From a virus (lineage: Duplodnaviria > Caudoviricetes): 64,000 nucleotides of DNA. The stretch lies in the IMG/VR virus record IMGVR_UViG_3300023435_000009; one strand, given 5' to 3'. The first letter of the stretch is position 1, and every line of letters begins with the position of its first letter. This document shows, piece after piece, positions 9,001-64,000 of the stretch. The position numbers and the translations under genes are program-made. Under the pieces are notes generated by a model. The model saw only the letters and a list, made by a program, of their open reading frames with translations, was not told the origin of the DNA and made no database searches.

Positions 9001-10302
9001 CCCCATGAGCAGACCAACGAGCAACTCCTGGATGTCATTACTTCTCGGGCTGTCACACGCACGGACGCTACCTGGGGTGTGGCCTCAGAGTTGGGTGGTT
9101 ACGTCCCAGAGGTCACAGGTGGGGCCACCTATGCTGGTAATGTCAACAAGCTCTACGACGACCTGAACGCCCCAGGAACCGGGGGCCAGACCTTCGGGGC
9201 GTTGGGGGTACAGAAGGGTGATATCGTTGTGGTGGATCCCATCGGGTTGATTCCTCAGAACTTAGCGGGCGATCCCACAACGCAAGAGTTGGCGATGCGT
9301 CCGGTGGGGGACGATTCTGTAGACGTCAGGATCGGTGCCGGAGTGTATGTGCCTGGACGCCCGAACCCTCTGGATGACAACAGGGGCTTCTACAGGGTTC
9401 TCCAGGTGGTCGATTCGGTGACACCCCCCTACTTGCTGGTGAATCCGGTTACGGAATTCACGGGGACAGATGTCGCTCCCGTTGTGTTCGATCCTACGGA
9501 TGACACCCGAGCGTATGCGGTGTACCCCTCGATCCACGACTCTTCTTTGGCTGCGACTGGCGAGGAGGGGCAGATGGATCTTCGTCCGACGAGGGCGAGG
9601 AATCCTGCGAATGGTTCCTTCAAGAACTACCCCAGCGGACTCAGCAACCACTCGGTAAGGCCCTTCTCTTATCAGGTGATTCGTCCGACGCAGTTCTTCA
9701 CGGACGCCACCATTGACTTGGTCCTGTCCACTCGGGAACGGATGCTCTCCCTCATCGCTTTGATCAATCAAATTGGGCACACCAAGGGTGGCAGTTATTT
9801 CATCTTCCAACGGGACACCCACCTGTACGATGTGGGCAGCCCGACCGACCCGGAGTTGGGCCTCGGTGTGGCCTCTAACGACTACCTCATGTCCGTGGTG
9901 GGCCGGGTGGATGTGATGCCCTATGCCAATAACACGACCTGCTTGTCCCTTCTGGACAGGAGGTTCTGGATCCTGGACGAGAAGCTGGACTTCCTGACGT
10001 ATGATGCAGCCAGCGGGACGGGGATGAGAAGGGCGGGTCCAGGGGACACCCCATACACTGAGTACTCTACAGTGACGGGGAGCATGGTCCGCCCTGTGCT
10101 GCCAGACTTGGTAGACGATGTGCTGGATCAGTCTGAGAGGCTCCGGGACGTGCGGTACGTCTGGTTGGCCTACCGGACTCATCAGGTTCTGGGCACGCTT
10201 GCCTCACTGAGCCGCTTTGACGCTGAGTTACCCAAACGTCTTCAGGAACAGGAGCAGTATCTGCTCCTGAAGGAATCGATGGAGAAGGTCTCTGAAACTT
10301 GA
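1..10302 (+). CDS. Giant putative virion structural protein (>3429 aa, 5'-truncated)
   Basis: The frame is open from base 1 (TCG GAC GGA ATC GTG) to TGA at 10300-10302, with strongly GC3-biased codons. The sequence is rich in G/P/V/T/D, as in beta-rich virion proteins. It heads a co-oriented baseplate/tail operon. No catalytic motif recognised. Confidence 0.75.
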   Translation, partial: SDGIVGPMRLADATPLYLAPIPGPTDHPFIHFGSRNPLTPILVTTDAALASINTVDPGTVAVSLSTGKLRFAPEDVQRADPSTPLFDKYFLGEDVIYKGVALNSQPQPTRAPVALVDEAGAVATAQDDPLYIPDAVELPTEFALDDPRRGLGVSGILDAPDGTGGLPSQPGVAATVRPGGDTIGAQNLGRIRQVDDGVGESILFSREGAIITLEEVTLEADLPTMGFKVKASKAYVARERGVEGSLVVLGRSDRKSFGDNAVYFLQSSLTPATFTTDAVVYSRGRDIFRFTGDEVFYYAVDGTAYLWTPTLLLAAYPNNSYFTPEMVAASLQSDTLPLPPAGTATAVSGRVAIRGATSVEIGFGTDGEKDLSGCTALGLMPGWRAVNGVQNWLPDSGVTLGLPRSPSNMDRSSATPDYAAVDRVENIILSESVPPSPFTFLDNVPLQDIAGYDDGVFFTLQYLALNGDEIEVVNKPLLHYEDIIHRFGQRKFDWVEDSIALGVVDKTTTTLNLGVPSLVPETLLGIPEIAAGLLVAPDGGVYIFQDPDTDFVLPQDGVSGNVILVERFGSLVTYGSKGARLTDPTHFEDQSADFTQAKVGYRLKITSGDNTGSYLVEEILSSTQVRLAPAIPEESQIWMTWELFTGHTSDVYDPALVADMVYKDFQLLPEEPFIIRILHLAGLVPATPAEQEANRLQVDMGEAVELDRPISLRFGLEAVNLTNEATLTALRKVPMGTMANNLLTLPDVNSSRFSTEAFSVQVGRATFSHGAGDLVGVASFSSDPSGIEYLTADIVVGGVTTPKGRLKFGTTVLTSLTGAKVYYQEEFLGAALLVSGEAEFDPSDGWFNLSSADLTVHAGKRLYFVEQLETEGHRDVSINPMLGAFSPNVPLPRGAVVEVLYWRADLEGRRIGDQVVEFLPVFVRKEQAQLVAPNIYKFNHALEDTVFQDIEPSVWIGAMMQNFGQVDCVVDYPEDWNGAGRVTFVSKTVDATDPVTVTFAVYEAQGGERSYEASQKNIYRPPFFIKANQSRFGLRTDRTAEFEPGQMIRIGEDCFYIRSLKYFPLETDGSGDVTEVNIFPSTINEVGSRAPGNDLLNYITDKPLTTVVDPDGPTPVPTTAAAGFMSAIDLTQFPFESVVRGQKVVIFRGDLTEFAVPGHVIEIGGAPYTIGSSEITEDGTRTKITVTGSFHRAFDILAAPIVKISYRPVYPPNFMEFVGVGPVLDSETVELVLFGETLSNGEEAPGRTLVPDVEYHLDYTSGAVQLLWPPQAGLQPNQWLLLTFTKLRTLQPYLKDEVLVEPRFQASFLSVTTPSEANDRLGATLAATFTFSSPDSFYFRAVELTQFLSEAAQEAIRDINATSPAGGSIQISAGGTDNWQQGRFGLMGEKAHLSDLDRAARTFLGFYNDTVVAFEQIQETISGGFVGDRDGKFRFWVGYGKDYPTPGYEDAISGGLLSRFVWADAVNSERVLGAPAFLTLDDWVVAPDSVTLEDAEISGSFLGPNTLNIMQTIQGALVQNDVDDVVLLKLGKTHITGTGADPYYHFKAKGVFGRMSDQHQFSRIFPTRTKAFFRLYPGAGAQMEPGAFNPGVYTAGRDINGEWLKTTGEQIGQISNPVLGDIQGVDSIDLVERRARGRIWGYFPDGLPGGLFDGGASPPVPVACIIVTPLLLRDVPVDPETGYPDDTRFLSTVPPGDLGDAVAGDPELAVPGFEAGDQLGWGKPDGTELGAFCPTTVLMWGATEPTGLFVREVLYGCVITFQDYLAAPMALPEEVLVVDTPAHEYPLERGDTLMVVSPSGVAMQAPQVPDLTTAPTFQTFADSTVLAGLYRDGYDLGTKSDGQVIDKSLPSLQDHAYIPLKELAGQNVPEPTSSVEGILEFLYMNQNPLKVPALLGGWVDDSGDFSVPYIRTGNTEIDRFEDISVVVSEAISARSDTVPTEAVYPDEILSLNGVVNVVGDTPASLDVDADLFPVVPGPIVPGIGNARPYDLILVQEPALFEDSDFTTLAGYTLGPHGILSIGRAETIPGGTAVEPPRFVTHTAAPPAGLSPVTGDAVRYNLTNAMVFVDGIYPPDPQVGVPPAGVAVFEDTLAGITVLDFTSVPMALNDGITRGVGNLNDVYFAGNPITIRMIARPDPNVVAGPVGPNPLPSLTGGVEALRITLWQGMAFVWTYQDDFNLAPPIGVALGGPPIFGDNVVPVLPVSDNRQIIIPGLGIIPWGAVPPNTWFLPHTLTPGPLYTMIYGFEYSFDIDARGFLHWAPAAPIWGSLTAWVDEDRLTFHETCDLRYASERGFVHPLNPALDLETQLTVDEVRLGRDAATWYWSDVNARANGWTGAPIPFTFLMRVPPYVGEWQMAAGTVSERGSIRVMAFEGHDNVPIEGVTVASATVPSCDYPPNQTAEICSGVGVTSSRLNTWLTPAEVESSDCRLTAITPSSGSVGAVEKGDVLVINGSSNLTYPGTLYAGTYLVRHAVETLGGSYRAVAPTSTTGVGTGWCPVVYPTVLGYDNVTNELTVSDLAPAAGGPLVGGVNVGFPLPAAGTRVFVLISPAGLASFDELTFRGSVISAEYSGMAMVAGRGVFTVANWQDAMGTVITEAEFELSATVGTKISGMQFLPVQVSGAEYGLPHDNCVGVDDAALSIYGFRRLTFRPPTSLTHFPAAPDNAQPVVFNSAGAPGVTDGALDRVAGFNTLIPMVSAPEPGHEFLPSPATPVYHWVAHTLDVQAFNSLLQLWDTLNVAGGSYGGIHGATGVRCILPGTEMAMTSENVGVMLPGFRAQAGIFLEPSVPRAGLDLVPAVSHVRVVDQDHSLPDPTLAATDDVREIWMRNAHDYYLGGGASTQPNIPEEVTFIVRRIRRFHNVGGSPTNLMPLRYAYEIRRGMITDYTVMPSQMCIVQANSFTMNWESIKPAGSPKANDAWNDGATYLGTNLGPFNNEDVNAHAGDTFRLLDRFGDVVEEAEISSVREGHELVLVPPGLQLYDPSNGTVRFEIFLRHAPVPHEQTNEQLLDVITSRAVTRTDATWGVASELGGYVPEVTGGATYAGNVNKLYDDLNAPGTGGQTFGALGVQKGDIVVVDPIGLIPQNLAGDPTTQELAMRPVGDDSVDVRIGAGVYVPGRPNPLDDNRGFYRVLQVVDSVTPPYLLVNPVTEFTGTDVAPVVFDPTDDTRAYAVYPSIHDSSLAATGEEGQMDLRPTRARNPANGSFKNYPSGLSNHSVRPFSYQVIRPTQFFTDATIDLVLSTRERMLSLIALINQIGHTKGGSYFIFQRDTHLYDVGSPTDPELGLGVASNDYLMSVVGRVDVMPYANNTTCLSLLDRRFWILDEKLDFLTYDAASGTGMRRAGPGDTPYTEYSTVTGSMVRPVLPDLVDDVLDQSERLRDVRYVWLAYRTHQVLGTLASLSRFDAELPKRLQEQEQYLLLKESMEKVSET

Positions 10303-10368
10303 TAAGTGTTCAACGGTGCTTTAAGATGTTGGTCATGTGCATGACTATCACGCAGGCAGAGGGGAAAA

Positions 10369-11577
10369 GTGCTTCTAGCTCATGAAATAAGGCTCCGTCC
10401 CTCCCGAACGCAGGAGGAATACTTTCGTCATGCCTGTGGTGTGGCGAGGTTCACGTACAACTGGGCGTTGGAACATTGGAAAAGCGCCTACGAGGCGGGA
10501 GAAAAACCTTCTGGATCTTCTCTCAAGAAACAGTTCAATGCTATCCGTCGTGAGAAGTTTCCCTGGACTTATGAAGTTCACAGGGACTGTACAGCCCAGT
10601 CTTTCACGCAACTCCAAAAGGCGTTCACGCATTTTTTCCATCGTATGAAAGCGGGTCGAAAACCAGGCTACCCCAAGTTTAAAAAACGAGGTGGGTGCAA
10701 GGACTCTTTCTACATAGCTAATGACCGATTCCGATTAGACAACAAACGTATCCACTTACCCAAAATAGGATGGGTCAGGTTGCGTGAAGTCCTACGTTTC
10801 GAGGGTATGATCACCAGTGCTATCGTCAAGCGTGTAGCTGACGCCTGGTTCGTTGTAGTACAGGTCGATGTCGGTGACTATCGACGTGACCGCATTGCCA
10901 ATAGTGAGGTCGGTGTCGATTTGGGTATCAGATCCTCTGCTACACTCTCCACCGGGGAGCATATTCAAGGACCAAAGGCCTTGAAAAAGAACCTGAGGAA
11001 GTTGCAACGGGAGTCCCGTTGGCATTCCCGCAAACAGAAGGGATCAGCAAATCGCCGTAAATCGACAATGAAATTGGCTCGATTGCACCGTCGGATCGGT
11101 TACGTCCGATCCGACTATCTGCACAAACTGAGTACAAGGCTCTGTCGTGAGAACCAAGCGATAGGGATCGAGGATTTGGCTGTACAGAACATGGTTCGTA
11201 ATAGGCGGTTGAGCCGCCACATCGTGGATGAGGGATGGGGGGGGTTTCGACGGCAGATCAATTATAAGGCGGTCATCTTTGATGACGTGGTCGTTGTTCA
11301 TGATCGTTTTTACGCTTCGTCGAAGACCTGTTTTTTGTGTTGTGAAAAGAGGGCTAAGTTAAGCCTATCCGAGCGTACCTTCAAGTGCGCCTGCGGTTGG
11401 GAAATTGACAGAGATGTCAATGCCGCTTTGAACTTACTACCGTGGGTTACACGGGAAGTTACGCTTGTGGAGAAGGAAGCGCTGGTTTTGGCATTAGCTG
11501 AAACGAAACTGCCTTTGATGAAGCAGGAACTAACCCCTACGCCTTTGTGCGTGGGGGAAAGGTATCAGAAGGCCTAG
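10369..11577 (+). CDS. tnpB: TnpB RNA-guided endonuclease (IS200/IS605/IS607 OrfB-type), no adjacent transposase
   Basis: N-terminal HTH_OrfB-like AHEIRLRPS...ACGVARFTYNWAL; RuvC-I VGVDLG, RuvC-II IGIEDL, zinc ribbon CFLC...CACG, RuvC-III DRDVNAALNL. Visibly more AT-rich than the flanking genes. Confidence 0.95.
   Translation: MLLAHEIRLRPSRTQEEYFRHACGVARFTYNWALEHWKSAYEAGEKPSGSSLKKQFNAIRREKFPWTYEVHRDCTAQSFTQLQKAFTHFFHRMKAGRKPGYPKFKKRGGCKDSFYIANDRFRLDNKRIHLPKIGWVRLREVLRFEGMITSAIVKRVADAWFVVVQVDVGDYRRDRIANSEVGVDLGIRSSATLSTGEHIQGPKALKKNLRKLQRESRWHSRKQKGSANRRKSTMKLARLHRRIGYVRSDYLHKLSTRLCRENQAIGIEDLAVQNMVRNRRLSRHIVDEGWGGFRRQINYKAVIFDDVVVVHDRFYASSKTCFLCCEKRAKLSLSERTFKCACGWEIDRDVNAALNLLPWVTREVTLVEKEALVLALAETKLPLMKQELTPTPLCVGERYQKA
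11439..11571 (+). ncRNA. Putative TnpB omegaRNA (reRNA) scaffold overlapping the 3' end of tnpB
   Basis: It lies in the non-conserved tail after RuvC-III, where TnpB guide scaffolds are known to sit. Hairpins GTTTTGGC-ATTA-GCTGAAAC and CCCCTACGC-CTTTGT-GCGTGGGGG are present. The 3' 93 nt are repeated at 22578-22669. Boundaries are approximate. Confidence 0.75.
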
Positions 11578-11804
11578 TGGAGATCCCTAAAGAAATTCAG
11601 GACTTGCTGGACAAACTCGGGGTGGACCCTGGGGCCTGGGGTGAGATGGAAGGGCACGCTGCCACTCCTCCCCTGATGCAGCGTCAGGCTGAAACTCTCG
11701 TCAAGCTCCGCACCTTCCTGGAGACTATGGTGGCCCAGGATCAGGCCGCATTGTCGGGGCTGCATGAACAGTTGGCCCGACTGAAACACGGTGGGGGATC
11801 CTGA
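11577..11804 (+). CDS. Small hypothetical coiled-coil protein (75 aa, GTG start)
   Basis: GTG overlaps the tnpB stop (TAGTG), and its own stop overlaps the next ATG (TGATG). The C-terminal half is heptad-like. Confidence 0.7.
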   Translation: MEIPKEIQDLLDKLGVDPGAWGEMEGHAATPPLMQRQAETLVKLRTFLETMVAQDQAALSGLHEQLARLKHGGGS

Positions 11805-21899: not shown

Positions 21900-21991
21900 G
21901 CCGTCCATTGATGCGCCTATAAATTCGGTAGGGTGAGGTCTAGTCTGAAAGAAGTTGGGTTTGGGGTTACAGACTGTGGAGAGGGGACACA

Positions 21992-22516
21992 ATGGTTTTA
22001 CGTGAGAAAGTGCTCAAGTTGGCCCACGACCGGCCAGAATTTCGGAAGTACCTTGTTCCTTTGTTGAGAAGGTGTGCTGCTTCGACTCCCTCCTACCAGG
22101 AGTACGTGGACAAGAAGAGACAGAAGAATGAGCGTCCTCTCTCCAAGGATAAGTGGGAGAGGAGGGTGCTGCGCAACCGGGGGATCTCTGAGGGCCACGA
22201 AGAGTGGAAGAAGGACGAAGCGGCCAAGAAGGACCTGAAGAAGACGGATAAGTCCGACACCAAACGGAAGGACCGAAAGGAATTGTCCGATAAAGTTGTG
22301 AAATCCAGGGGTCTCAAGGATAAGGATCTTGAAGAAGTTCAGGCCTATCAGAAGAAGAATGTGAAGCCGGGTCAGAAGGGCAAATTGAAGCCCTGGGAAC
22401 TCAAAGCTAAGTTCTTGGCAAAGGCCAGCCCTGAAACGAAAGAACGGATGAAGGGGCTGAACAACCAGGAGTTCATGGCGGTTCTCAATGCTATCATGGA
22501 TGAGGACGAGGGTTAA
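21992..22516 (+). CDS. Highly basic, Lys/Glu-rich hypothetical protein (174 aa)
   Basis: SD-like GAGGGG upstream; K-rich; codon use matches the other phage genes. Confidence 0.75.
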   Translation: MVLREKVLKLAHDRPEFRKYLVPLLRRCAASTPSYQEYVDKKRQKNERPLSKDKWERRVLRNRGISEGHEEWKKDEAAKKDLKKTDKSDTKRKDRKELSDKVVKSRGLKDKDLEEVQAYQKKNVKPGQKGKLKPWELKAKFLAKASPETKERMKGLNNQEFMAVLNAIMDEDEG

Positions 22517-22577
22517 CCCAGTTTTTAGCCAATGAGGTAGGAGAACGTTTCTAGGGTTCTTGACAGTGTGTAACGGG

Positions 22578-22669
22578 GCGCTGGTTTCGGCATTAGCTGA
22601 AACGAAACTGTCCTCGTTGGAGTAGGGGCTAATTCCTACGTTTTTGTGCGTGGGGAAAGGTAGCAGAAG
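22578..22669 (+). ncRNA. Orphan copy of the TnpB1 omegaRNA 3' scaffold (no tnpB attached)
   Basis: My by-eye alignment gives 78/93 identity to 11479-11571, with both hairpins still able to pair. It lies in the intergenic gap immediately before ATG 22672. Confidence 0.75.
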
Positions 22670-22671
22670 CC

Positions 22672-25600
22672 ATGGCAGCGGTAATCGTCAGTAAACTATA
22701 CACCTCTCCGGTTGGCCCCCAGGTTGGACCCACCGAGACGGGGATCAGCAGGAACGATCTACAAAAGGGCTACCGTGTGGTCTGTGAGTCACTTAACGTG
22801 GCGACGACCTACAGTTGGTCCCTTGTGTTCACTCCGGATTCCCCTGGCCCCACAGCGGCCTCTGGGAACGACTTCACAGGTACTCCGTCCACTGCGGGCC
22901 TGCTGCCCCCCGAGGGTAGCACGTCGGCCACGTGCAAGTTTGATGTAGACTGGGACGGTTCCTACCTCATCCGTCTCATCACTGATGCGGGCACGGTAGA
23001 CGAGGACTCTCAGTTCATCCGGCTTCGATTGATGACTACCTTCGGTGATCTGAAGCTCATCGCCGCCGGGGAGCGTCGGGACCAAGGTGGTGTGGTTCCT
23101 GTGGACGCAGCGACCGAAGGGTGGTCGGATGTCCAGAACCAGAACATCCAGCGGCTGATGCTGATGGTGCGCCGGGGAATGACTACGGGCCGGACGCTCT
23201 ACGTTGATCCCAACAGGGGGCGGACCTTCCTTACCTCTCAGGCGTCCGACGATACTACAAATATCGTGCGTGTCCCCGGACCGGACTCCGCAGCGAGAGA
23301 TGAGAGTGGGATGCGGATGTCGGCGGTAGGGTGTGGGGACTTCTCCTCCATCTCTGAAGCCATCAGCTACGCTTCCGCTGCTGTCGCCAGGGGGGAACCG
23401 GCCTTGGCTGCAGGGGATCCCTACATCATCAATGTGGCCCCTGGGACTTACAATGAGGACTTAGCGCTGGTCCCCTTCGTTTATTTGATGGGGGCTGGGG
23501 GGTACTACAATCGGGTCACTACAGTTGATGCCACCACTACAGGTTCCCACACGTTTACGGCAACAGGTCCCGGTGACCTCTGTGTTTTGATAGGGATGCA
23601 CCTGACGAATAGTCTCGTTACAACCGGGGCGGTTCTGGAAAACAACGGTGGTATTCTCATCCTTCAGGACGTTGCAGTCCAGCAGGAAGGTGTTTCCGGA
23701 ACGCAGGGGCCTGCTCTTCATGTTGATCAGGCTTTTGAGTCTACGGTCTGGGCTGACCAATGTCTCTTGAGTTCAGAGGGCTCTCCTGCAACTCAATATG
23801 CGCTCGTCCTTGAGAACCTTGCTGGAGCAGTCACCTTTACAGGGGGGATGATCGTTGGGCCATCCGCTGTGTTCTGTCTCTCGGATCCTGTCGCAGGAGC
23901 ATCTACGCTGGCTGTAGACATCCGCAGTGCTGTGATTACAGCAGGGGTCGGAGGTACTGCCTATCAGGGATACCCCAGCAGTACGACGTTTGCTACCTCT
24001 GAGATTGGGGGGCCTGTGGTGCTTAGTTCCGGGGCTTACGGGGTGGGGGCCTACACCCACGATGTGGAACTGGAACTCAACGCTGTTTCCTTTGATGTAG
24101 CTCTGCTGGTTGCCCCTGTGTCAGTGACCCCGACTGGTACGACCGGATCCTGCACTTTCAACCACGGGGACGTTGTTGTCCGTGGAGCTACCGCAGGGGA
24201 TTATCTGGATGTCCCCACGGCCCCTGGAAACGTGCCTACGGTGGAGCCCAGTTCTCAGAGCTACGCCAACTATTTTGACAACAACTTCACCAACCCTCTG
24301 ACGACGCTTTCGCTGAACAGTCTTCAGCAGATCCCGGTGGGTAACGTCCAGGAGGCCCTTACGCTCCTGACTCGTTACGTGCTGCCCGTCACGGGAGCAC
24401 CGTTCTACTCCCTGGAGTCTGCATATAACGGCCTCGCTTCCTTGAACCCCCCGGTAGCGGGTGATGGGTTGGGCCGGACCATCGAGGCGGGTGCCGGAGC
24501 TGTTCAGATCACGGCGGCACTTGCCCCGGTGGTACCCTACGAGCCGCTCCTGTTGGGCGGTCTTCAGGTAGAGGGTCAGGTTGATATAGGCCCCCTGATG
24601 GGGGATGGCCTGGGCTCCGAGTTTACGGTCGACCCCAACACCTTTGGGATGGGTGTGATCCTTAAGATGGGTCGCAATGTCTTCCCCAACGTGACGGGGC
24701 TGAATTCGTTGGCTCTGGTTCAGGTGGGTTCCGATCCTTCTTTGCCTTTCGACTACACTGTCCACACGAGGAACAGTGCTGGTCTACTCCTCAGGCCGGG
24801 GGCTGCAAGTCTGGTTGCAGGATCCGGGGTAGGGGCACTTGGCCCTGGGGGCGGTGACGTTCATCTACAAGCGGGTTCCGCAGGAAACCCCGCACCCACT
24901 ACGGGTTCTGTGTGGGTTGCCCCCGGTGCCCACACTGTTACTAACGGACGTCTAGAGTTGGCGGACCCCTCAACGGCGACGGCCCCCACTTTGTTGGCTG
25001 CCGGACCTTTTGTTCCTGGTCCCGCCACAGGCACCTTCTACATTCAGACCATCAATGGTGTGGAGGAGCACACGATCCTGGCGGCGGACACCATTGGCAC
25101 TTTGGTGGCCCGAATCAACACCACTTCCCTGAGTTTGGCGGCTACAGCCGTCATGGGGACCACACTAAGACTCACGGGTCTGAACACGGGGCCGACCGCC
25201 TTCATCCTCTACATGACGGATGATCAGGGCGGGGCACTCAACACAATGATGGGAGACTTGGTCCCCCCGGCGGCGACATATGTTGCAGGGAGCTACGTCA
25301 ATCATGTGGGTCTGAGTTGCATTGGAGCCAATCTGTTCCATGTTCACGGTACAGTCTCGGCAGATGTGCCCATTATTGCCGTTCCTGGTGGCTATCAGCC
25401 AATGCTCAATCCTGGAGCGCTTGTTGGACCAGGAATCGCTATTGTTGGGGTGGATAACACGGCAGGTACTGTTACGGTGACACTTCCAGTAGCTCCTGCT
25501 GTGGCGACACAGCTTACGGTCAAGCACGAGGCGGGTGTGTTGGCTCCACTTACTCCTGTGAACATCGTTCCGGGGGCAGCCAATATCGACGGTGTCGCTG

Positions 25601-25686
25601 GACCCCGTGTCTACAACAACCCGTTGGACCACCAGTTCAGCCTGACAATGTACTTTAGCGGTGCCGCTGGTTGGTTCATCATCTAA
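22672..25686 (+). CDS. Tailspike/tail-fibre-like protein with N-terminal Ig/PKD-like domain and pectin-lyase-like beta-helix (1004 aa)
   Basis: PKD-like YSWSLVFTP...TSATCKFDVDWDGSYLIRL; beta-helix entry motif GDFSSISEAISYA...IINVAPGTYNEDLAL; NVQEALT fibre motif. Confidence 0.6.
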   Translation: MAAVIVSKLYTSPVGPQVGPTETGISRNDLQKGYRVVCESLNVATTYSWSLVFTPDSPGPTAASGNDFTGTPSTAGLLPPEGSTSATCKFDVDWDGSYLIRLITDAGTVDEDSQFIRLRLMTTFGDLKLIAAGERRDQGGVVPVDAATEGWSDVQNQNIQRLMLMVRRGMTTGRTLYVDPNRGRTFLTSQASDDTTNIVRVPGPDSAARDESGMRMSAVGCGDFSSISEAISYASAAVARGEPALAAGDPYIINVAPGTYNEDLALVPFVYLMGAGGYYNRVTTVDATTTGSHTFTATGPGDLCVLIGMHLTNSLVTTGAVLENNGGILILQDVAVQQEGVSGTQGPALHVDQAFESTVWADQCLLSSEGSPATQYALVLENLAGAVTFTGGMIVGPSAVFCLSDPVAGASTLAVDIRSAVITAGVGGTAYQGYPSSTTFATSEIGGPVVLSSGAYGVGAYTHDVELELNAVSFDVALLVAPVSVTPTGTTGSCTFNHGDVVVRGATAGDYLDVPTAPGNVPTVEPSSQSYANYFDNNFTNPLTTLSLNSLQQIPVGNVQEALTLLTRYVLPVTGAPFYSLESAYNGLASLNPPVAGDGLGRTIEAGAGAVQITAALAPVVPYEPLLLGGLQVEGQVDIGPLMGDGLGSEFTVDPNTFGMGVILKMGRNVFPNVTGLNSLALVQVGSDPSLPFDYTVHTRNSAGLLLRPGAASLVAGSGVGALGPGGGDVHLQAGSAGNPAPTTGSVWVAPGAHTVTNGRLELADPSTATAPTLLAAGPFVPGPATGTFYIQTINGVEEHTILAADTIGTLVARINTTSLSLAATAVMGTTLRLTGLNTGPTAFILYMTDDQGGALNTMMGDLVPPAATYVAGSYVNHVGLSCIGANLFHVHGTVSADVPIIAVPGGYQPMLNPGALVGPGIAIVGVDNTAGTVTVTLPVAPAVATQLTVKHEAGVLAPLTPVNIVPGAANIDGVAGPRVYNNPLDHQFSLTMYFSGAAGWFII

Positions 25687-40867: not shown

Positions 40868-42256
40868 ATGAAGGTTACCCGAATACTCTTTTCCAAAAAC
40901 CTCAATGCAGGTAAATTCACTGCCTTAGAGGAACAAGCGCACCGATTAGGGGAACTTCGTTCAGAAATATGGCAACGATTCGGATCTGTAAATGGGGTGG
41001 GAAAATCGGATAGGGAAATCCGGGACGAATGGCTGCAACAGAAGAAAGAGTTTGATGTTCCAGCCAACGCCTGGAAAGAAACCCTAAGGGATACTGTTTC
41101 TGACATCAAGACCTCTAGGGAAGCAGCAAAGGTCAAAGCAAGAAAAGCGGTTTGCCGCCACACAACTGACGTTGCTGAAAGAAAGTGTCTGTATACGCTT
41201 CTTAAGTCAGATAATTGGACCACCGATCCTTATTTGACTCGTATCATGCGAAAGTACTGGAAGCGAGGACACAACCACACCCATAATCAGATCATCGTTC
41301 GTACTGACAACTACAGGACTTTTGAACTCGACGGTAGCGTTTGGCTTAAGATACCAGGGTTAACACCACGAAAAAGGATCTCGATTCCCTTAGACACTAA
41401 CGTACACCCAACAGGTACTCTCCGACTGATCCTTCGAGGTGGTAAGGTTGAGATCCATTATCAAATCGAGGTCAAAAAGGAAAACCGTCACGGAGACAAA
41501 ACACTTGGGGTGGACAAAGGTTACACGGAAGTCCTTGTAGATTCTGACGGAGACCACCATGGGGAAGGATTGGGGAAACTGTTGTCCTCAGAGTCCGGTT
41601 ACCTGAAGGTCAAATACCAACGACGAAACAAACTCAAGGCAATTGCTAGGAACAAGCCTCATAAAAGGGTGGACATCGAACGAAACAATCTTGGTCGAAA
41701 GAAACTTGATCGACGAGATCGGGTTGTAAAGGTTTGTGTTCGAGACAAGGTTTTCAAAGCTGCTCATGCTGTTGTTGATAAAGCAGCAGTAGTGGTTGCT
41801 GAGGATTTAACCTCACCTATTCCTTCGAAAAGATCTTATGGGAGGAATATGAACCGGCGACTTTCCGCTTGGACCAAGGGTGTCATTGCGGAGAGTCTTG
41901 ATTCCGTATCTCAGCGTAGAGGTTCTACGCTTGCGCTCGTTAATTGTGCATATACATCGCAAGTGGATTCTCGTTATGGTGTTCTTCGTGGACGTCGTAA
42001 GGGGGATTCGTTTTACTGTTTTGATGGGGTTGTTTTGCACTCTGATGAGAATGCTGCACGAAACGTTTTGGCAAGACATTACGACTTTGAGATAGGTCGT
42101 TGGACTCCGTACCGGAAAGTTCGGGGTATTTTGCTTGAGCGGACTAAATGCCATCGGTTGGGACTGCTCAACCTGGACACCAGTTGCAGACCGGAGGGTC
42201 TATCAACGGTGAGCGAATTACCTTTGCAAGGTAAGGGGCAATTATGCCATGCCTAA
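40868..42256 (+). CDS. tnpB: Second, unrelated TnpB-family RNA-guided endonuclease (462 aa), no adjacent transposase
   Basis: RuvC-I LGVDKG, RuvC-II VVAEDL, AYTSQ, RuvC-III SDENAARN. AT-rich island between structural genes. Confidence 0.9.
   Translation: MKVTRILFSKNLNAGKFTALEEQAHRLGELRSEIWQRFGSVNGVGKSDREIRDEWLQQKKEFDVPANAWKETLRDTVSDIKTSREAAKVKARKAVCRHTTDVAERKCLYTLLKSDNWTTDPYLTRIMRKYWKRGHNHTHNQIIVRTDNYRTFELDGSVWLKIPGLTPRKRISIPLDTNVHPTGTLRLILRGGKVEIHYQIEVKKENRHGDKTLGVDKGYTEVLVDSDGDHHGEGLGKLLSSESGYLKVKYQRRNKLKAIARNKPHKRVDIERNNLGRKKLDRRDRVVKVCVRDKVFKAAHAVVDKAAVVVAEDLTSPIPSKRSYGRNMNRRLSAWTKGVIAESLDSVSQRRGSTLALVNCAYTSQVDSRYGVLRGRRKGDSFYCFDGVVLHSDENAARNVLARHYDFEIGRWTPYRKVRGILLERTKCHRLGLLNLDTSCRPEGLSTVSELPLQGKGQLCHA
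42130..42250 (+). ncRNA. Putative omegaRNA of TnpB2 overlapping its 3' end
   Basis: Non-conserved coding tail after RuvC-III, with hairpins AGACC-GGAG-GGTCT (42188-42201) and TTACCTT-TGC-AAGGTAA (42218-42234). Position fits TnpB biology; boundaries are uncertain. Confidence 0.5.
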
Positions 42257-56793: not shown

Positions 56794-56844
56794 AAGGCGA
56801 ACAAAACCGAACATGCGGCTTCGAGGCTAAGGAGGAGTGTTAAG

Positions 56845-57060
56845 GTGAACCACCAGAATAAAAATGGTGGAACTGAAGGTGAGACTCCTATGTTCTCCGG
56901 GTTGTCTTTAAGGACAGCTACCCTGAGATTGGTCCAGTCTCAGGCTCTAGCAGTATCGAAGGACGAAACAAGACCTGAAATGGTTGGTAACATCTTCGAT
57001 ACAACCAGAGGCCCGGAAACTTTGCCGAGGACAACAATTTCCCTTCGGGAGGTGTCTTAA
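56845..57060 (+). ncRNA. IscB omegaRNA scaffold, copy 1 (putative guide immediately 5', 56823-56844)
   Basis: Directly upstream of iscB. Stems CCACC/GGTGG, GTTGTC/GACAGC, CTGAGATTG/CAGTCTCAG, a CTTCGG tetraloop and ACTTTGCCGAGG. 214/216 identical to 63341-63556. Confidence 0.85.
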
Positions 57061-58251
57061 ATGACACAGAAAATCTTTGTGATTGACGCTGACGGGAAGC
57101 AGCTACTTCCCACTCACCCAGCACGCTCTAGAAAATTGTTGCGAGCTGGTCGTGCCCAGGTACACCAAGTGGTGCCGTTTACGATTCAATTGAGCCGTGT
57201 TGTTGAGAATCCTGTTGGAGCCTTCACTGTTGGTATCGATGATGGAGCGAAACACGTTGGTATTGCAGTTGTAAACAGGCATCAGAAAGAAGTTGTTTTC
57301 CGAGGCACAATTCGTTTGAGACAAGACGTTTCGAGGAAAATGACACAACGGGCAGCGTATCGACGAACGAGGAGAAGTCGGTTACGCTTTCGGGCACCGA
57401 GATTCAGGAACAGGGGTAGAAGGGGCTTTCTGCCCCCAACGATCCGACAGAAGAAAGAATCCATTTTGAGAGTGCTTGTCGATCTCAAAAAGAGGTTGAA
57501 CATCATCGAGGCTACGATTGAAGAAGGTCAGTTTGACACAAGTAGTTTGGTTGCAGGACGAAAATTGACAGGGGCAGAATTTCAGAAATCTGAATACAGT
57601 AAGGGGGGTTTTCGAGCTAAGGTGCTGTGGCGAGACAAATACAAGTGTCAACATTGTGGTACCTCTGATCGCCTTCAAGCCCACCACATTCAGTTTAAGA
57701 GTCGAGGTGGTGGGGATTCCCCTCAAAATGGGCTTACTCTTTGTGGGACATGTCATGCGGATCTTCATGAAGGATTGTGGGTGCTGACAAAGAAGCCTCG
57801 TCCTTTTAGGTATCCTGCTCATCTACAAGCAGGTAAGAATTACCTGAGGGAGCTTCTTCATGGGATTGGCTTAAGAATCGAGGTTTGTTTCGGGTGGATG
57901 ACTGCCAAGTGGCGGAAATGTCTTGAGTTGGAGAAAGCACATGACTTAGATGCCGTTGCTATGGTTTGTCGGGGCTGCAAGCCCTACTTGTGTCTAAGGT
58001 CTTTTTTGGTTATCCCGAAGAGAACGAAGGTATGGGAAAACAATCCCACGAAAAAGCGTTTTGAGTTTCGGGGTTTTAGACATTGGGATTTGGTGAAGGC
58101 TCGTCATCGTACTCGTGGTGTAGTTGTTGGGTCCATAAGGAGTCTAAAGAAGACTACCCTTACTTTACGAACGAATTGGGACAGTAACTTTCCTGTTTCG
58201 TATAACAAATCCCAAGTTTTGTGGCGCTTTGGGGGTCTTGTTTATGTCTGA
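57061..58251 (+). CDS. iscB: IscB RNA-guided endonuclease (PLMP, split RuvC, RRXRR bridge helix, HNH)
   Basis: QLLPTHPARSRKLL (PLMP-like), GIDDGAKHVGIAV (RuvC-I), RRTRR, IEEGQFD (RuvC-II), CQHC...AHHI...NGLTLCGTCH (HNH), AHDLDA (RuvC-III). Confidence 0.95.
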   Translation: MTQKIFVIDADGKQLLPTHPARSRKLLRAGRAQVHQVVPFTIQLSRVVENPVGAFTVGIDDGAKHVGIAVVNRHQKEVVFRGTIRLRQDVSRKMTQRAAYRRTRRSRLRFRAPRFRNRGRRGFLPPTIRQKKESILRVLVDLKKRLNIIEATIEEGQFDTSSLVAGRKLTGAEFQKSEYSKGGFRAKVLWRDKYKCQHCGTSDRLQAHHIQFKSRGGGDSPQNGLTLCGTCHADLHEGLWVLTKKPRPFRYPAHLQAGKNYLRELLHGIGLRIEVCFGWMTAKWRKCLELEKAHDLDAVAMVCRGCKPYLCLRSFLVIPKRTKVWENNPTKKRFEFRGFRHWDLVKARHRTRGVVVGSIRSLKKTTLTLRTNWDSNFPVSYNKSQVLWRFGGLVYV

Positions 58252-62904: not shown

Positions 62905-63339
62905 ATGAAGATGGCTATCCTGTTCCATGAGGGGTGTGTGATCGACAAACGCCTTATTGAAAGGCTACTCCGACGAGTGGTCCGTAAAGACCCCCCCAAG
63001 GTACTCCTCACGGACGCCAAAATGCCGGAATCCTCCTGTGTGCGGAGTTGTGGCAAACGGCTTGGGCTGGAGGTATGGGACTCTGAGGAGCTTAGAGGAG
63101 AACCCACTTTCGGGGGGCGGATCCGAGATTGGATTTGGGGTAGAGTCTCCAGCAGGCAATTGCTGATTCAGTCTTGTGACGTTGCGGTGGTGTTTTGGGA
63201 TGGGTCGATCAGCGTGAAAAGCCTGGTCTTGGAGATCCTTGCGGCAGACCGAAAGGTCATCCGTGTGAACGGCCTCGGTCACCTTTCCGGCCAAACAGCC
63301 GGTGCAATGATCGAGGTTGAGGCTAAGGAGGAGTGTTAA
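62905..63339 (+). CDS. Degenerate SLOG/YspA-like protein (144 aa); its last 6 codons and stop are the flank shared by both IscB loci
   Basis: CDVAVVFWDG...VIRV resembles SLOG C-termini; it ends EAKEEC* encoded by GAGGCTAAGGAGGAGTGTTAA. Confidence 0.5.
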   Translation: MKMAILFHEGCVIDKRLIERLLRRVVRKDPPKVLLTDAKMPESSCVRSCGKRLGLEVWDSEELRGEPTFGGRIRDWIWGRVSSRQLLIQSCDVAVVFWDGSISVKSLVLEILAADRKVIRVNGLGHLSGQTAGAMIEVEAKEEC

Positions 63340-63340
63340 G

Positions 63341-63556
63341 GTGAACCACCAGAATAAAAATGGTGGAACTAAGGGTGAGACTCCTATGTTCTCCGGGTTG
63401 TCTTTAAGGACAGCTACCCTGAGATTGGTCCAGTCTCAGGCTCTAGCAGTATCGAAGGACGAAACAAGACCTGAAATGGTTGGTAACATCTTCGATACAA
63501 CCAGAGGCCCGGAAACTTTGCCGAGGACAACAATTTCCCTTCGGGAGGTGTCTTAA
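63341..63556 (+). ncRNA. IscB omegaRNA scaffold, copy 2 (putative guide 63319-63340)
   Basis: Differs from copy 1 at two positions only (CTGAAGGT vs CTAAGGGT). Confidence 0.85.
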
Positions 63557-64000
63557 ATGACACAGAAAATCTTTGTGATTGACGCTGACGGGAAGCAGTT
63601 ACTCCCCACTCACCCAGCACGCTCTAGAAAACTACTACGAGCTGGTCGTGCCCAGGTACATCAAGTGGTGCCCTTTACGATCCAACTGGTCCGTGTTGTT
63701 GAGAATCCGGTTGGAGCCTTCACTGTTGGTATCGATGATGGAGCGAAACACGTTGGCATAGCGATGGTAAACGAGCACACCAAGGAAGTAGTCTTCAGGG
63801 GTACTGTTCGGTTACGTCAGGATGTTAAGCGAAAAATGACACAACGGGCAGCGTATCGACGAACAAGAAGAAATCGGAAGCTCCGACATCGCCCAGCCAA
63901 GTTTTTGAACCGAGGAAGGAAGGGTTTCCTGCCCCCAACTATTCGACAGAAGAAGGATAGCATACTTCGGGTAGTTAAGGACTTAGGAAAAGTTCTCTGC
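63557..64000 (+). CDS. iscB: IscB copy 2 (3'-truncated by the window edge; absent from the ORF track)
   Basis: My translation: MTQKIFVIDADGKQLLPTHPARSRKLLRAGRA...GIDDGAKHVGIAMVNEHTKEVVFRG...RRTRRNRKLRHRPAKFLNRG..., open to the window end. Confidence 0.92.
   Translation, partial: MTQKIFVIDADGKQLLPTHPARSRKLLRAGRAQVHQVVPFTIQLVRVVENPVGAFTVGIDDGAKHVGIAMVNEHTKEVVFRGTVRLRQDVKRKMTQRAAYRRTRRNRKLRHRPAKFLNRGRKGFLPPTIRQKKDSILRVVKDLGKVLC

Follow-up and report, generated by a model that had tools for sequence, protein, structure and literature searches.

Palindrome-associated transposable elements (PATEs) are reportedly gene-less miniature derivatives of IS200/IS605 elements, which keep both transposon ends and can encode an omegaRNA. 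In the IS607-type element ISFba1, the guide RNA scaffold has a RAGATH-18 stem flanked on its 5′ side by a hairpin and on its 3′ side by a further part, and contains two pseudoknots, PK1 and PK2 (Ren et al. 2024, PMC11061315). A pseudoknot formed by the 5′ hairpin and another involving the RAGATH-18 core are needed for ribonucleoprotein (RNP) formation and cleavage; mutations in the 5′-hairpin (PK2) loop impair RNP formation, and PK1 mutations abolish cleavage (PMC11061315). The published target-adjacent motif (TAM) of IS607 TnpBs is AGGAG in 18 of 22 strains and GAGGG in the other 4, and 36% of 16,029 RAGATH-18 RNAs do not adjoin an IS607 TnpB (PMC11061315). Here we analyse a scaffold copy of this kind (hereafter the orphan) in a window of 64,000 nt taken from a 109-kb viral contig (IMG/VR record IMGVR_UViG_3300023435_000009; CheckV completeness 21%). 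The orphan resembles the 3′ end of the tnpB gene of an element located 11 kb upstream (TnpB1), and it had been proposed, in the original prediction, to be a stand-alone guide RNA able to reprogram TnpB1 in trans. The comparisons described below suggest that positions 22544-22666 are probably an internally deleted IS607-type element of the TnpB1 family, i.e. a stranded, non-autonomous relic, the anatomy of which is well supported. The parts of this mini-element and its presumed parent are as follows:

22539-22543, + strand: AGGAG, a TAM-type motif that abuts the left end
22544-22579, + strand: 36-nt left-end (LE) remnant, the homologue of 10285-10319, where the TnpB1 element begins
22578-22666, + strand: right-end (RE) remnant, the 3′ two thirds of a right-end RNA (reRNA, or omegaRNA) scaffold, homologous to 11479-11568
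22584-22603, + strand: hairpin 1, family helix 4 (the distal stem of the RAGATH-18-like stem-loop), 8 bp with loop ATTA
22609-22630, + strand: degenerate core, the 3′ strands of helices 2 and 3 together with the conserved GAUGAAGCAGGAAC block, their partners deleted
22633-22656, + strand: hairpin 2, family helices 5-7, 9 bp
22657-22666, + strand: 3′ tail of the right end, AAGGTAGCAG, conserved, the element terminating after CAG
22667-22686, + strand: guide-position flank, comprising the spacer AAGCC, the ATG at 22672 and the first codons of a fibre-like gene
10285-11568, + strand: TnpB1 element, IS607-type and tnpB-only, with LE, tnpB (10369-11577) and reRNA scaffold (11440-11568)

Global alignment of 22578-22669 with the TnpB1 3′ end (11479-11571) gave 78 identities in 93 columns, the same count as first reported, and the differences were indeed mostly transitions (12 transitions, 2 transversions and one 1-base deletion). 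The match had an E-value of 4.8e-23 in BLAST searches within the 109-kb contig, where the sequence is present in two copies only. There is no tnpB attached to the orphan, the sole TnpB1-like gene of the contig being 10369-11577. Folding placed the two described hairpins in both copies, and the base changes reported within them were reproduced: a U-G pair of hairpin 1 has become C-G (at 22588), and hairpin 2, with three C>U changes and one G deleted, retains nine of its nine pairs. The orphan thus has the distal stem-loop, the 3′ stem-loop and the tail AAGGTAGCAG expected at a right end. The same tail also ends the elements of loci L099, L102 and L024, and the orphan's version (GUAGCAG) is closer to the subfamily consensus than that of TnpB1 itself. 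A start codon lies 5-8 nt past the repeat at both loci (ATG 22672; GTG 11577, the latter forming TAGTG with the overlapped tnpB stop codon). The guide position, i.e. the bases on the 3′ side of the orphan scaffold, does span the start of the next gene, as predicted. No second match to this 20-nt guide (up to 3 mismatches) was found in the 109-kb contig. With regard to the boundary, the similarity to TnpB1 does stop at CAGAAG, but the element itself ends after CAG (22666 in the orphan, 11568 in TnpB1), because comparison with other family members indicates that the AAG belongs to the target.

The 61 nt on the left of the repeat turned out to contain a TAM followed by a transposon left end, and so are no anonymous spacer. 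The alignment of this left end with that of TnpB1, including the preceding GGAG, contains 30 identities in 38 columns with 3 gap positions, and no more than 5-6 of the 18,270 windows of 46 nt taken as background from this phage reached its score. A shuffle test with harsh scoring had at first given a p-value of about 0.03, and the matched-window tests gave about 3e-4. The LE remnant includes a TTGACA box (22560-22565), which is the counterpart of the -35-like TTGATA of a promoter-like site (TTGATA-17-TAAGAT, 10299-10327) at tnpB1. The LE and RE homologies are colinear and abut, sharing a 2-nt GC microhomology at 22578-22579, and the resulting fusion (22544-22666) is 123 nt long. About 1,160 bp of the TnpB1 element have no counterpart in the fusion: the promoter-like site is cut off before its -10 half, tnpB is gone, and the scaffold starts only after its first 39 nt. 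The locus therefore has the make-up of a miniature insertion sequence derivative, in which both ends are kept (LE 30/38, RE 78/93) and the coding interior is deleted. It had been cautioned from the start that about 40 nt of the 5′ part of the scaffold were gone and that the copy could be a relic, and the 5′ part is indeed missing. The covariance model described below forces the 5′ part of the orphan into a diverged helix 1 (UCUAG-GGUU-CUUGA); this assignment was rejected, as the left-end alignment is much better. As a separate observation, 22535-22545 (AGGTAGGAGAA) is identical at 10 of 11 positions to the right terminus of the element plus flank (22658-22668, AGGTAGCAGAA), and AGAAGG brackets TnpB1 on both sides (10283-10288 and 11567-11572). 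This likeness of the flanks, at the orphan and at TnpB1, may reflect a target preference, a recombination core or chance.

The genes and the segment surrounding the mini-element are:

21955-22538, + strand: lineage-specific segment including a 174-aa gene, absent, together with the mini-element, from the relatives X18, L113 and L114
21992-22516, + strand: 174-aa gene, the open reading frame (ORF) directly upstream, unrelated to tnpB
22672-25686, + strand: 1004-aa fibre-like gene, with its ATG at 22672

Three relatives provided the uninterrupted state of the site. In X18, a contig from a marine metagenome, 21936 is joined to 22665 via 21 other letters ending in ...GAAGG, and the site reads AGGAG-AAGCC-ATG. 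The corresponding sequences in L113 and L114 are AGGAG-ATGCC-ATG and GAGGAG-ACACA-ATG, respectively, before a homologous fibre-like gene (55% and 53% identity in the 1004-aa protein), both regions being fully syntenic (Baseplate_J gene, 475-aa gene, fibre-like gene and 2040-aa gene). That is, the TAM and the target are contiguous in the uninterrupted state, and in all three relatives the flank is directly preceded by a motif of the published type (AGGAG or GAGGG); these sites therefore place the right boundary of the element after CAG (22666). The AGGAG of the empty site is also the Shine-Dalgarno sequence located 5 nt before the ATG of the fibre-like gene. The guide position of the orphan coincides with a gene start because the TAM is the Shine-Dalgarno sequence, and a guide at a gene start would therefore need no special explanation. 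Other family members likewise end 5-11 nt before an ATG. The motif preceding the left end is TGGAG in TnpB1 and L099 and AGGAG in L102, i.e. W-GGAG overall.

The 174-aa gene is absent from all three relatives, including the X18 strain, which is 92-98% identical. It has no known family, and a single remote, non-syntenic homologue of its product was found. At the left border of the 174-aa segment, GAAAGAAG (21947-21954) repeats the ancestral ribosome-binding region in degenerate form. In addition, a conserved intergenic block, CATTGATGCGCCTATAA(A/G), is found at 21905-21926 of the window, at 2944-2962 in L113 and at 2935-2955 in L114, and recalls a T4-type late promoter (TATAAATA). The block precedes the fibre-like gene in L113 and L114; in the phage studied here, it now precedes the inserted 174-aa gene.

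The presumed parent, the TnpB1 element, is bordered by TGGAG (10280-10284) on the 5′ side and AAGG CC TAGTG on the 3′ side. TnpB1 contains the Pfam domains HTH_OrfB, OrfB_IS605 and TNB, its RuvC residues D184, E268 and D349 are intact and align with the catalytic residues of ISDra2 TnpB, and among relatives with a solved structure the best matches are ISDra2 TnpB (E 2.5e-57) and ISFba1 TnpB, which is of the IS607 type (8IAZ, E 3.3e-49). A covariance model (R1; 129 positions, 37 pairs) was built from the 3′ ends of TnpB1 and its three closest relatives, which encode 62-65% identical proteins on phage-like contigs. R1 found a scaffold behind 49 further metagenomic tnpB genes. Covariation on homologs had been suggested as a check, and all seven helices do covary in the tnpB-linked relatives (93.6% of cells paired, against 60% for shuffled and about 40% for slid partners, in an alignment fitted to R1); the orphan lacks part of them. 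Helix 1, the 5′ hairpin, is paired in 96.6% of cells in these members. Directly upstream of many R1-detected loci is a MerR+Resolvase gene, i.e. the IS607 serine-recombinase TnpA (L022, L027 and L038, with similar C-termini in about 24 family loci), and the TnpB1 scaffold gives a sub-threshold match to Rfam RAGATH-18 (RF03064; 24 bits, E 0.03). By this linkage and this match, the scaffold family is assigned to the IS607 type. The TnpB1 element itself is without tnpA, no match to Resolvase (PF00239) or Y1_Tnp (PF01797) was obtained in the 109-kb contig, and an Rfam search of the whole window at gathering thresholds returned nothing. The tnpB frame of this subfamily spans the whole scaffold to the transposon end and stops at or just past it (11440-11579; L099, 3198-3212; L102, 3198-3211), the TnpB1 stop lying in flanking DNA and overlapping the start of the next gene (TAGTG). 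The left end, for its part, supplies stop codons for the upstream gene (TGA 10300-10302 ends a 3,429-aa ORF). With stop codons at both ends, these insertions thus appear built to fit inside an operon.

When scored with R1, the orphan reached 50.2 bits, compared to 140.6 bits for the TnpB1 scaffold. It is without helix 1 and without the 5′ strands of helices 2 and 3, which are gapped or mispaired in R1, whereas the two basal helices and the 5′ hairpin are present and covarying in 52 of 52 tnpB-linked relatives. The position of helix 1 is occupied by left-end sequence, which R1 aligns only with a mismatch and gaps, so that a 5′ hairpin is not present. The family core consists of the blocks CUGUGGAG ... 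GAUGAAGCAGGAA; the 5′ strand has been deleted from the orphan, leaving no RAGATH-18 core, and the partnerless 3′ strand reads GUUGGAGUAGGGG instead of GAUGAAGCAGGAA. Across the 52 tnpB-linked members, 10 columns are conserved at 90% or more. The orphan departs from the conserved base in 6 of them, compared to none for TnpB1 and, within the family, a mean of 0.33 and a maximum of 4; in one of the six, an A that is invariant in 52/52, it has a G. Furthermore, Rfam RF03064 (RAGATH-18) did not match the orphan at E≤10. These losses weaken the proposal that the orphan reprograms TnpB1 in trans, and the orphan probably no longer works as a guide RNA. The argument that its substitutions reveal selection for structure was not supported either. 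The changes in question are three C>U in C-G pairs, with a chance probability of about 1 in 8, and C>U on this strand accounts for 6 of the 12 transitions, such changes yielding G-U wobbles automatically. The pair-keeping changes are real, but they are weak evidence and statistically indistinguishable from chance.

In the reading that these data favour, the element is placed directly 3′ of the AGGAG TAM, as its full-length relatives are, and therefore between the ribosome-binding site and the start codon. About 36 nt of LE are fused to the last 89 nt of RE at the 2-nt GC microhomology, with loss of the ~1.16-kb interior. Two hairpins and the tail remain, whereas the partnerless 3′ strand of the core has decayed, and the product would be unable to assemble a canonical TnpB RNP. 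Any transcription of the orphan would take place within the late operon. Such a relic may be tolerated or kept, as only precise excision would restore the original ribosome-binding site. The mini-element differs from TnpB1 by 16% in the RE and about 21% in the LE, which exceeds the divergence between the studied phage and the X18 strain (2% and 8% over two aligned flanks). Together with the co-occurrence of the lineage-specific 174-aa gene, this suggests that the mini-element came by recombination from another phage rather than from the resident TnpB1. The mini-element and the 174-aa gene were probably imported by recombination, in one event or two.

Other tnpB-less scaffolds were detected. 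A third scaffold on the contig, outside of the window (G000:C1:103773-103908, - strand; L106 1501-1636; 136 nt), is full-length, scores 43.7 bits to R1 and ends in GGAGAACGG. That is, with respect to the suggested search for further copies, the 109-kb contig holds none of the orphan's own sequence besides TnpB1, whereas R1 does find another scaffold. No tnpB remnant was found upstream of it at the DNA or protein level. The scaffold makes up the RE of a discrete ~372-nt element, and a second phage (L118/L126) has an 85% identical copy of this element in other surroundings and next to another flank; the core helix of that copy is in canonical form. The guide of the intact copy has no second target within 109 kb. 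This copy would be a better stand-alone guide candidate than the orphan. Moreover, when IMG/VR was searched with a scaffold-core pattern, at least 6 of 18 matches had no TnpB within 1.4-1.5 kb upstream, and these copies sit on contigs with TnpB-type genes elsewhere. Copies of tnpB-less scaffolds are thus a recurrent phenomenon, of which the orphan is a degenerate instance. Complete scaffolds with no TnpB over that same upstream distance are seen in L115, L122, L127 and L131 of IMG/VR; L127 and L131 lie on one 103-kb contig, share the scaffold with different flanks, and are accompanied there by four or five TnpB-type genes elsewhere.

Several observations weigh against the orphan being a mere relic. 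The differences from TnpB1 cluster (1 in the 31 nt around hairpin 1, 8 in the 24 nt of the core and 6 in the 35 nt of hairpin 2 plus tail; Fisher p 0.02, with segments chosen after the fact), and every stem change keeps pairing, so that the hairpins may be under some constraint or the orphan may have undergone gene conversion with TnpB1. When three left ends were combined in an nhmmer profile, neither the orphan nor the more distant family members were matched, and the LE is therefore conserved only among close relatives. The copy and target searches covered the 109-kb contig, or about 21% of the genome, and the recurrence of tnpB-less scaffolds in large phages, some of them intact and at differing sites, makes a general role plausible. 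The truncated scaffold, transcribed with the late operon, could still be bound and processed by TnpB1 and work as a guide in trans, with uninterrupted AGGAG-AAGCCATGG... sites as targets, e.g. in co-infecting X18-like relatives, and AGGAG-AAGCCATGGCAGCGG... DNA as the candidate substrate of TnpB1 plus orphan RNA. The outcome would be homing of the mini-element with co-conversion of the 174-aa gene, or exclusion of a rival phage. An intact-looking TnpB1 is at hand 11 kb away, natural relatives have the target directly next to a TAM-type AGGAG, both hairpins and the terminal tail are kept (the tail nearer to the subfamily consensus than that of TnpB1), the differences fall mostly outside of hairpin 1, and the mini-element occurs where the 174-aa gene does and is missing where that gene is missing, as co-conversion predicts. 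However, the orphan has no 5′ hairpin, its helices 2 and 3 have lost their 5′ strands, and the k-turn/E-loop block is mutated at near-invariant positions; in ISFba1, RNP formation is impaired by PK2 loop mutations and cleavage is abolished by PK1 mutations (PMC11061315). In addition, no promoter-like site was found around the orphan, and the site of TnpB1 itself has TGGAG, not AGGAG, whereas ISFba1 tolerates no single TAM change (PMC11061315). A working trans guide therefore appears unlikely. If it were one, an IS607-type TnpB would work with about two thirds of its scaffold, much less than is known to function, one TnpB could be used with multiple guides, in the manner of a CRISPR array, in phage-phage competition, and the mini-element with its 174-aa gene could spread by RNA-guided homing or marker exclusion.

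The mini-element might also act within the mRNA of the fibre-like gene, having been exapted as a cis element for translation initiation, stability or attenuation. The insertion has put AGGAG 123 nt farther from the ATG, so the gene must initiate from the element tail (GGGGAAAGG...), and, owing to changes specific to the orphan, 22622-22639 can pair as an alternative hairpin of 7 bp, with GTTTTTG behind it, which excludes hairpin 2 and is excluded by it. Against this, the terminator-like match carries no signal above chance (1 found, compared to 1.2 expected from shuffles), the minimum-energy fold favours hairpin 2, and the strains found are all identical at the orphan, hence no comparative support is available, which leaves exaptation improbable. 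Continued mobility of an element of the MITE (miniature inverted-repeat transposable element) or PATE kind, moved in trans by an IS607 serine recombinase with or without a working RNA, would be in line with both ends being present and correctly placed after the TAM, and the ~372-nt element, although different, occurs in two unrelated contexts in two phages, indicating that miniature elements can spread. Yet the mini-element is single-copy in the 109-kb contig, no look-alike was found in IMG/VR (exact 22-mer), the contig encodes no resolvase or Y1 transposase that could act in trans, and the LE is reduced to 36 nt; a still-mobile element is very unlikely. Internal deletion followed by decay accounts, in our view, for the missing 5′ scaffold and the mutated core.

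The source of the window is a phage of about 520 kb, since window proteins have identical counterparts on metagenome contigs of 521,674 and 528,260 bp, and the window sequence is present in many salt-lake metagenome runs, none of them listed as an RNA run. The orphan lies in a co-oriented block of very large genes, including one for a Baseplate_J protein. The 1004-aa gene had been called a tailspike gene; this rests on its position after the Baseplate_J gene and on a sub-threshold, weak pectate-lyase-like lead from Atlas, which gave nothing else, whereas neither Pfam nor PHROGs matched the protein. PHROGs also gave nothing for seven neighbouring proteins, and scans of IMG/VR with the shared 22-mer, TnpB1, the 174-aa protein and the 1004-aa protein returned no relatives. 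Elsewhere in the window there are two IscB-like genes (RRXRR + HNH), one at 57061-58251 and one that starts at 63557 and is cut by the window end. A 300-nt repeat, 99% identical between the two, stands before each gene (regions 56823-58251 and 63319-64000) and presumably represents the omegaRNA leader of IscB. The window also has a second, distant TnpB-like gene (40868-42256, 462 aa), in which only a Cas12f1-like TNB domain was detected; R1 does not match its 3′ end, hence it would use a different scaffold.

As a relic, the orphan provides a clean natural example of a gutted IS607-type element, with LE, RE, TAM and empty site all identifiable. It also illustrates where IS607-type elements insert in phage virion operons: as the TAM AGGAG is itself a Shine-Dalgarno sequence, they come to lie 3′ of this sequence and 5′ of the start codon, and this identity explains why the 'guides' of phage TnpBs so often begin at gene starts. 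For annotation, decayed scaffold copies, in which the core is lost, are to be distinguished from intact tnpB-less copies.

Compared to ISFba1, the TnpB1 family shows the same general organization. The scaffold overlaps the 3′ end of tnpB and extends as far as the right end, the flank serves as guide, an AGGAG TAM lies 5′ of the LE, and the covarying scaffold has three parts (5′ hairpin, RAGATH-18-like stem and 3′ stem-loop). The TnpB1 scaffold is shorter, however (129 nt versus 187 nt), and the subfamily differs from ISFba1 in being tnpB-only, in ending with ...GCAG rather than ...GG, and in residing in phage virion operons. The orphan departs further from ISFba1, as it has neither a 5′ hairpin nor a tnpB at whose 3′ end it could be encoded or which it could overlap, and as just one half of the core is left, in mutated form. 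Like the tnpB-less RAGATH-18 copies of bacterial genomes and the tnpB-less scaffolds of phages, it has no adjacent nuclease gene, but those detected by R1 or by the pattern (e.g. G000:C1:103773-103908 and L118/L126) keep the core, which the orphan does not. It resembles the PATEs in being protein-less, in having two transposon ends with the guide-RNA region in the right one, and in its dependence on proteins supplied in trans. PATEs, in contrast, are multi-copy and have complete end structures, whereas the orphan is single-copy, belongs to an IS607-type (serine-recombinase) family and carries a truncated scaffold.

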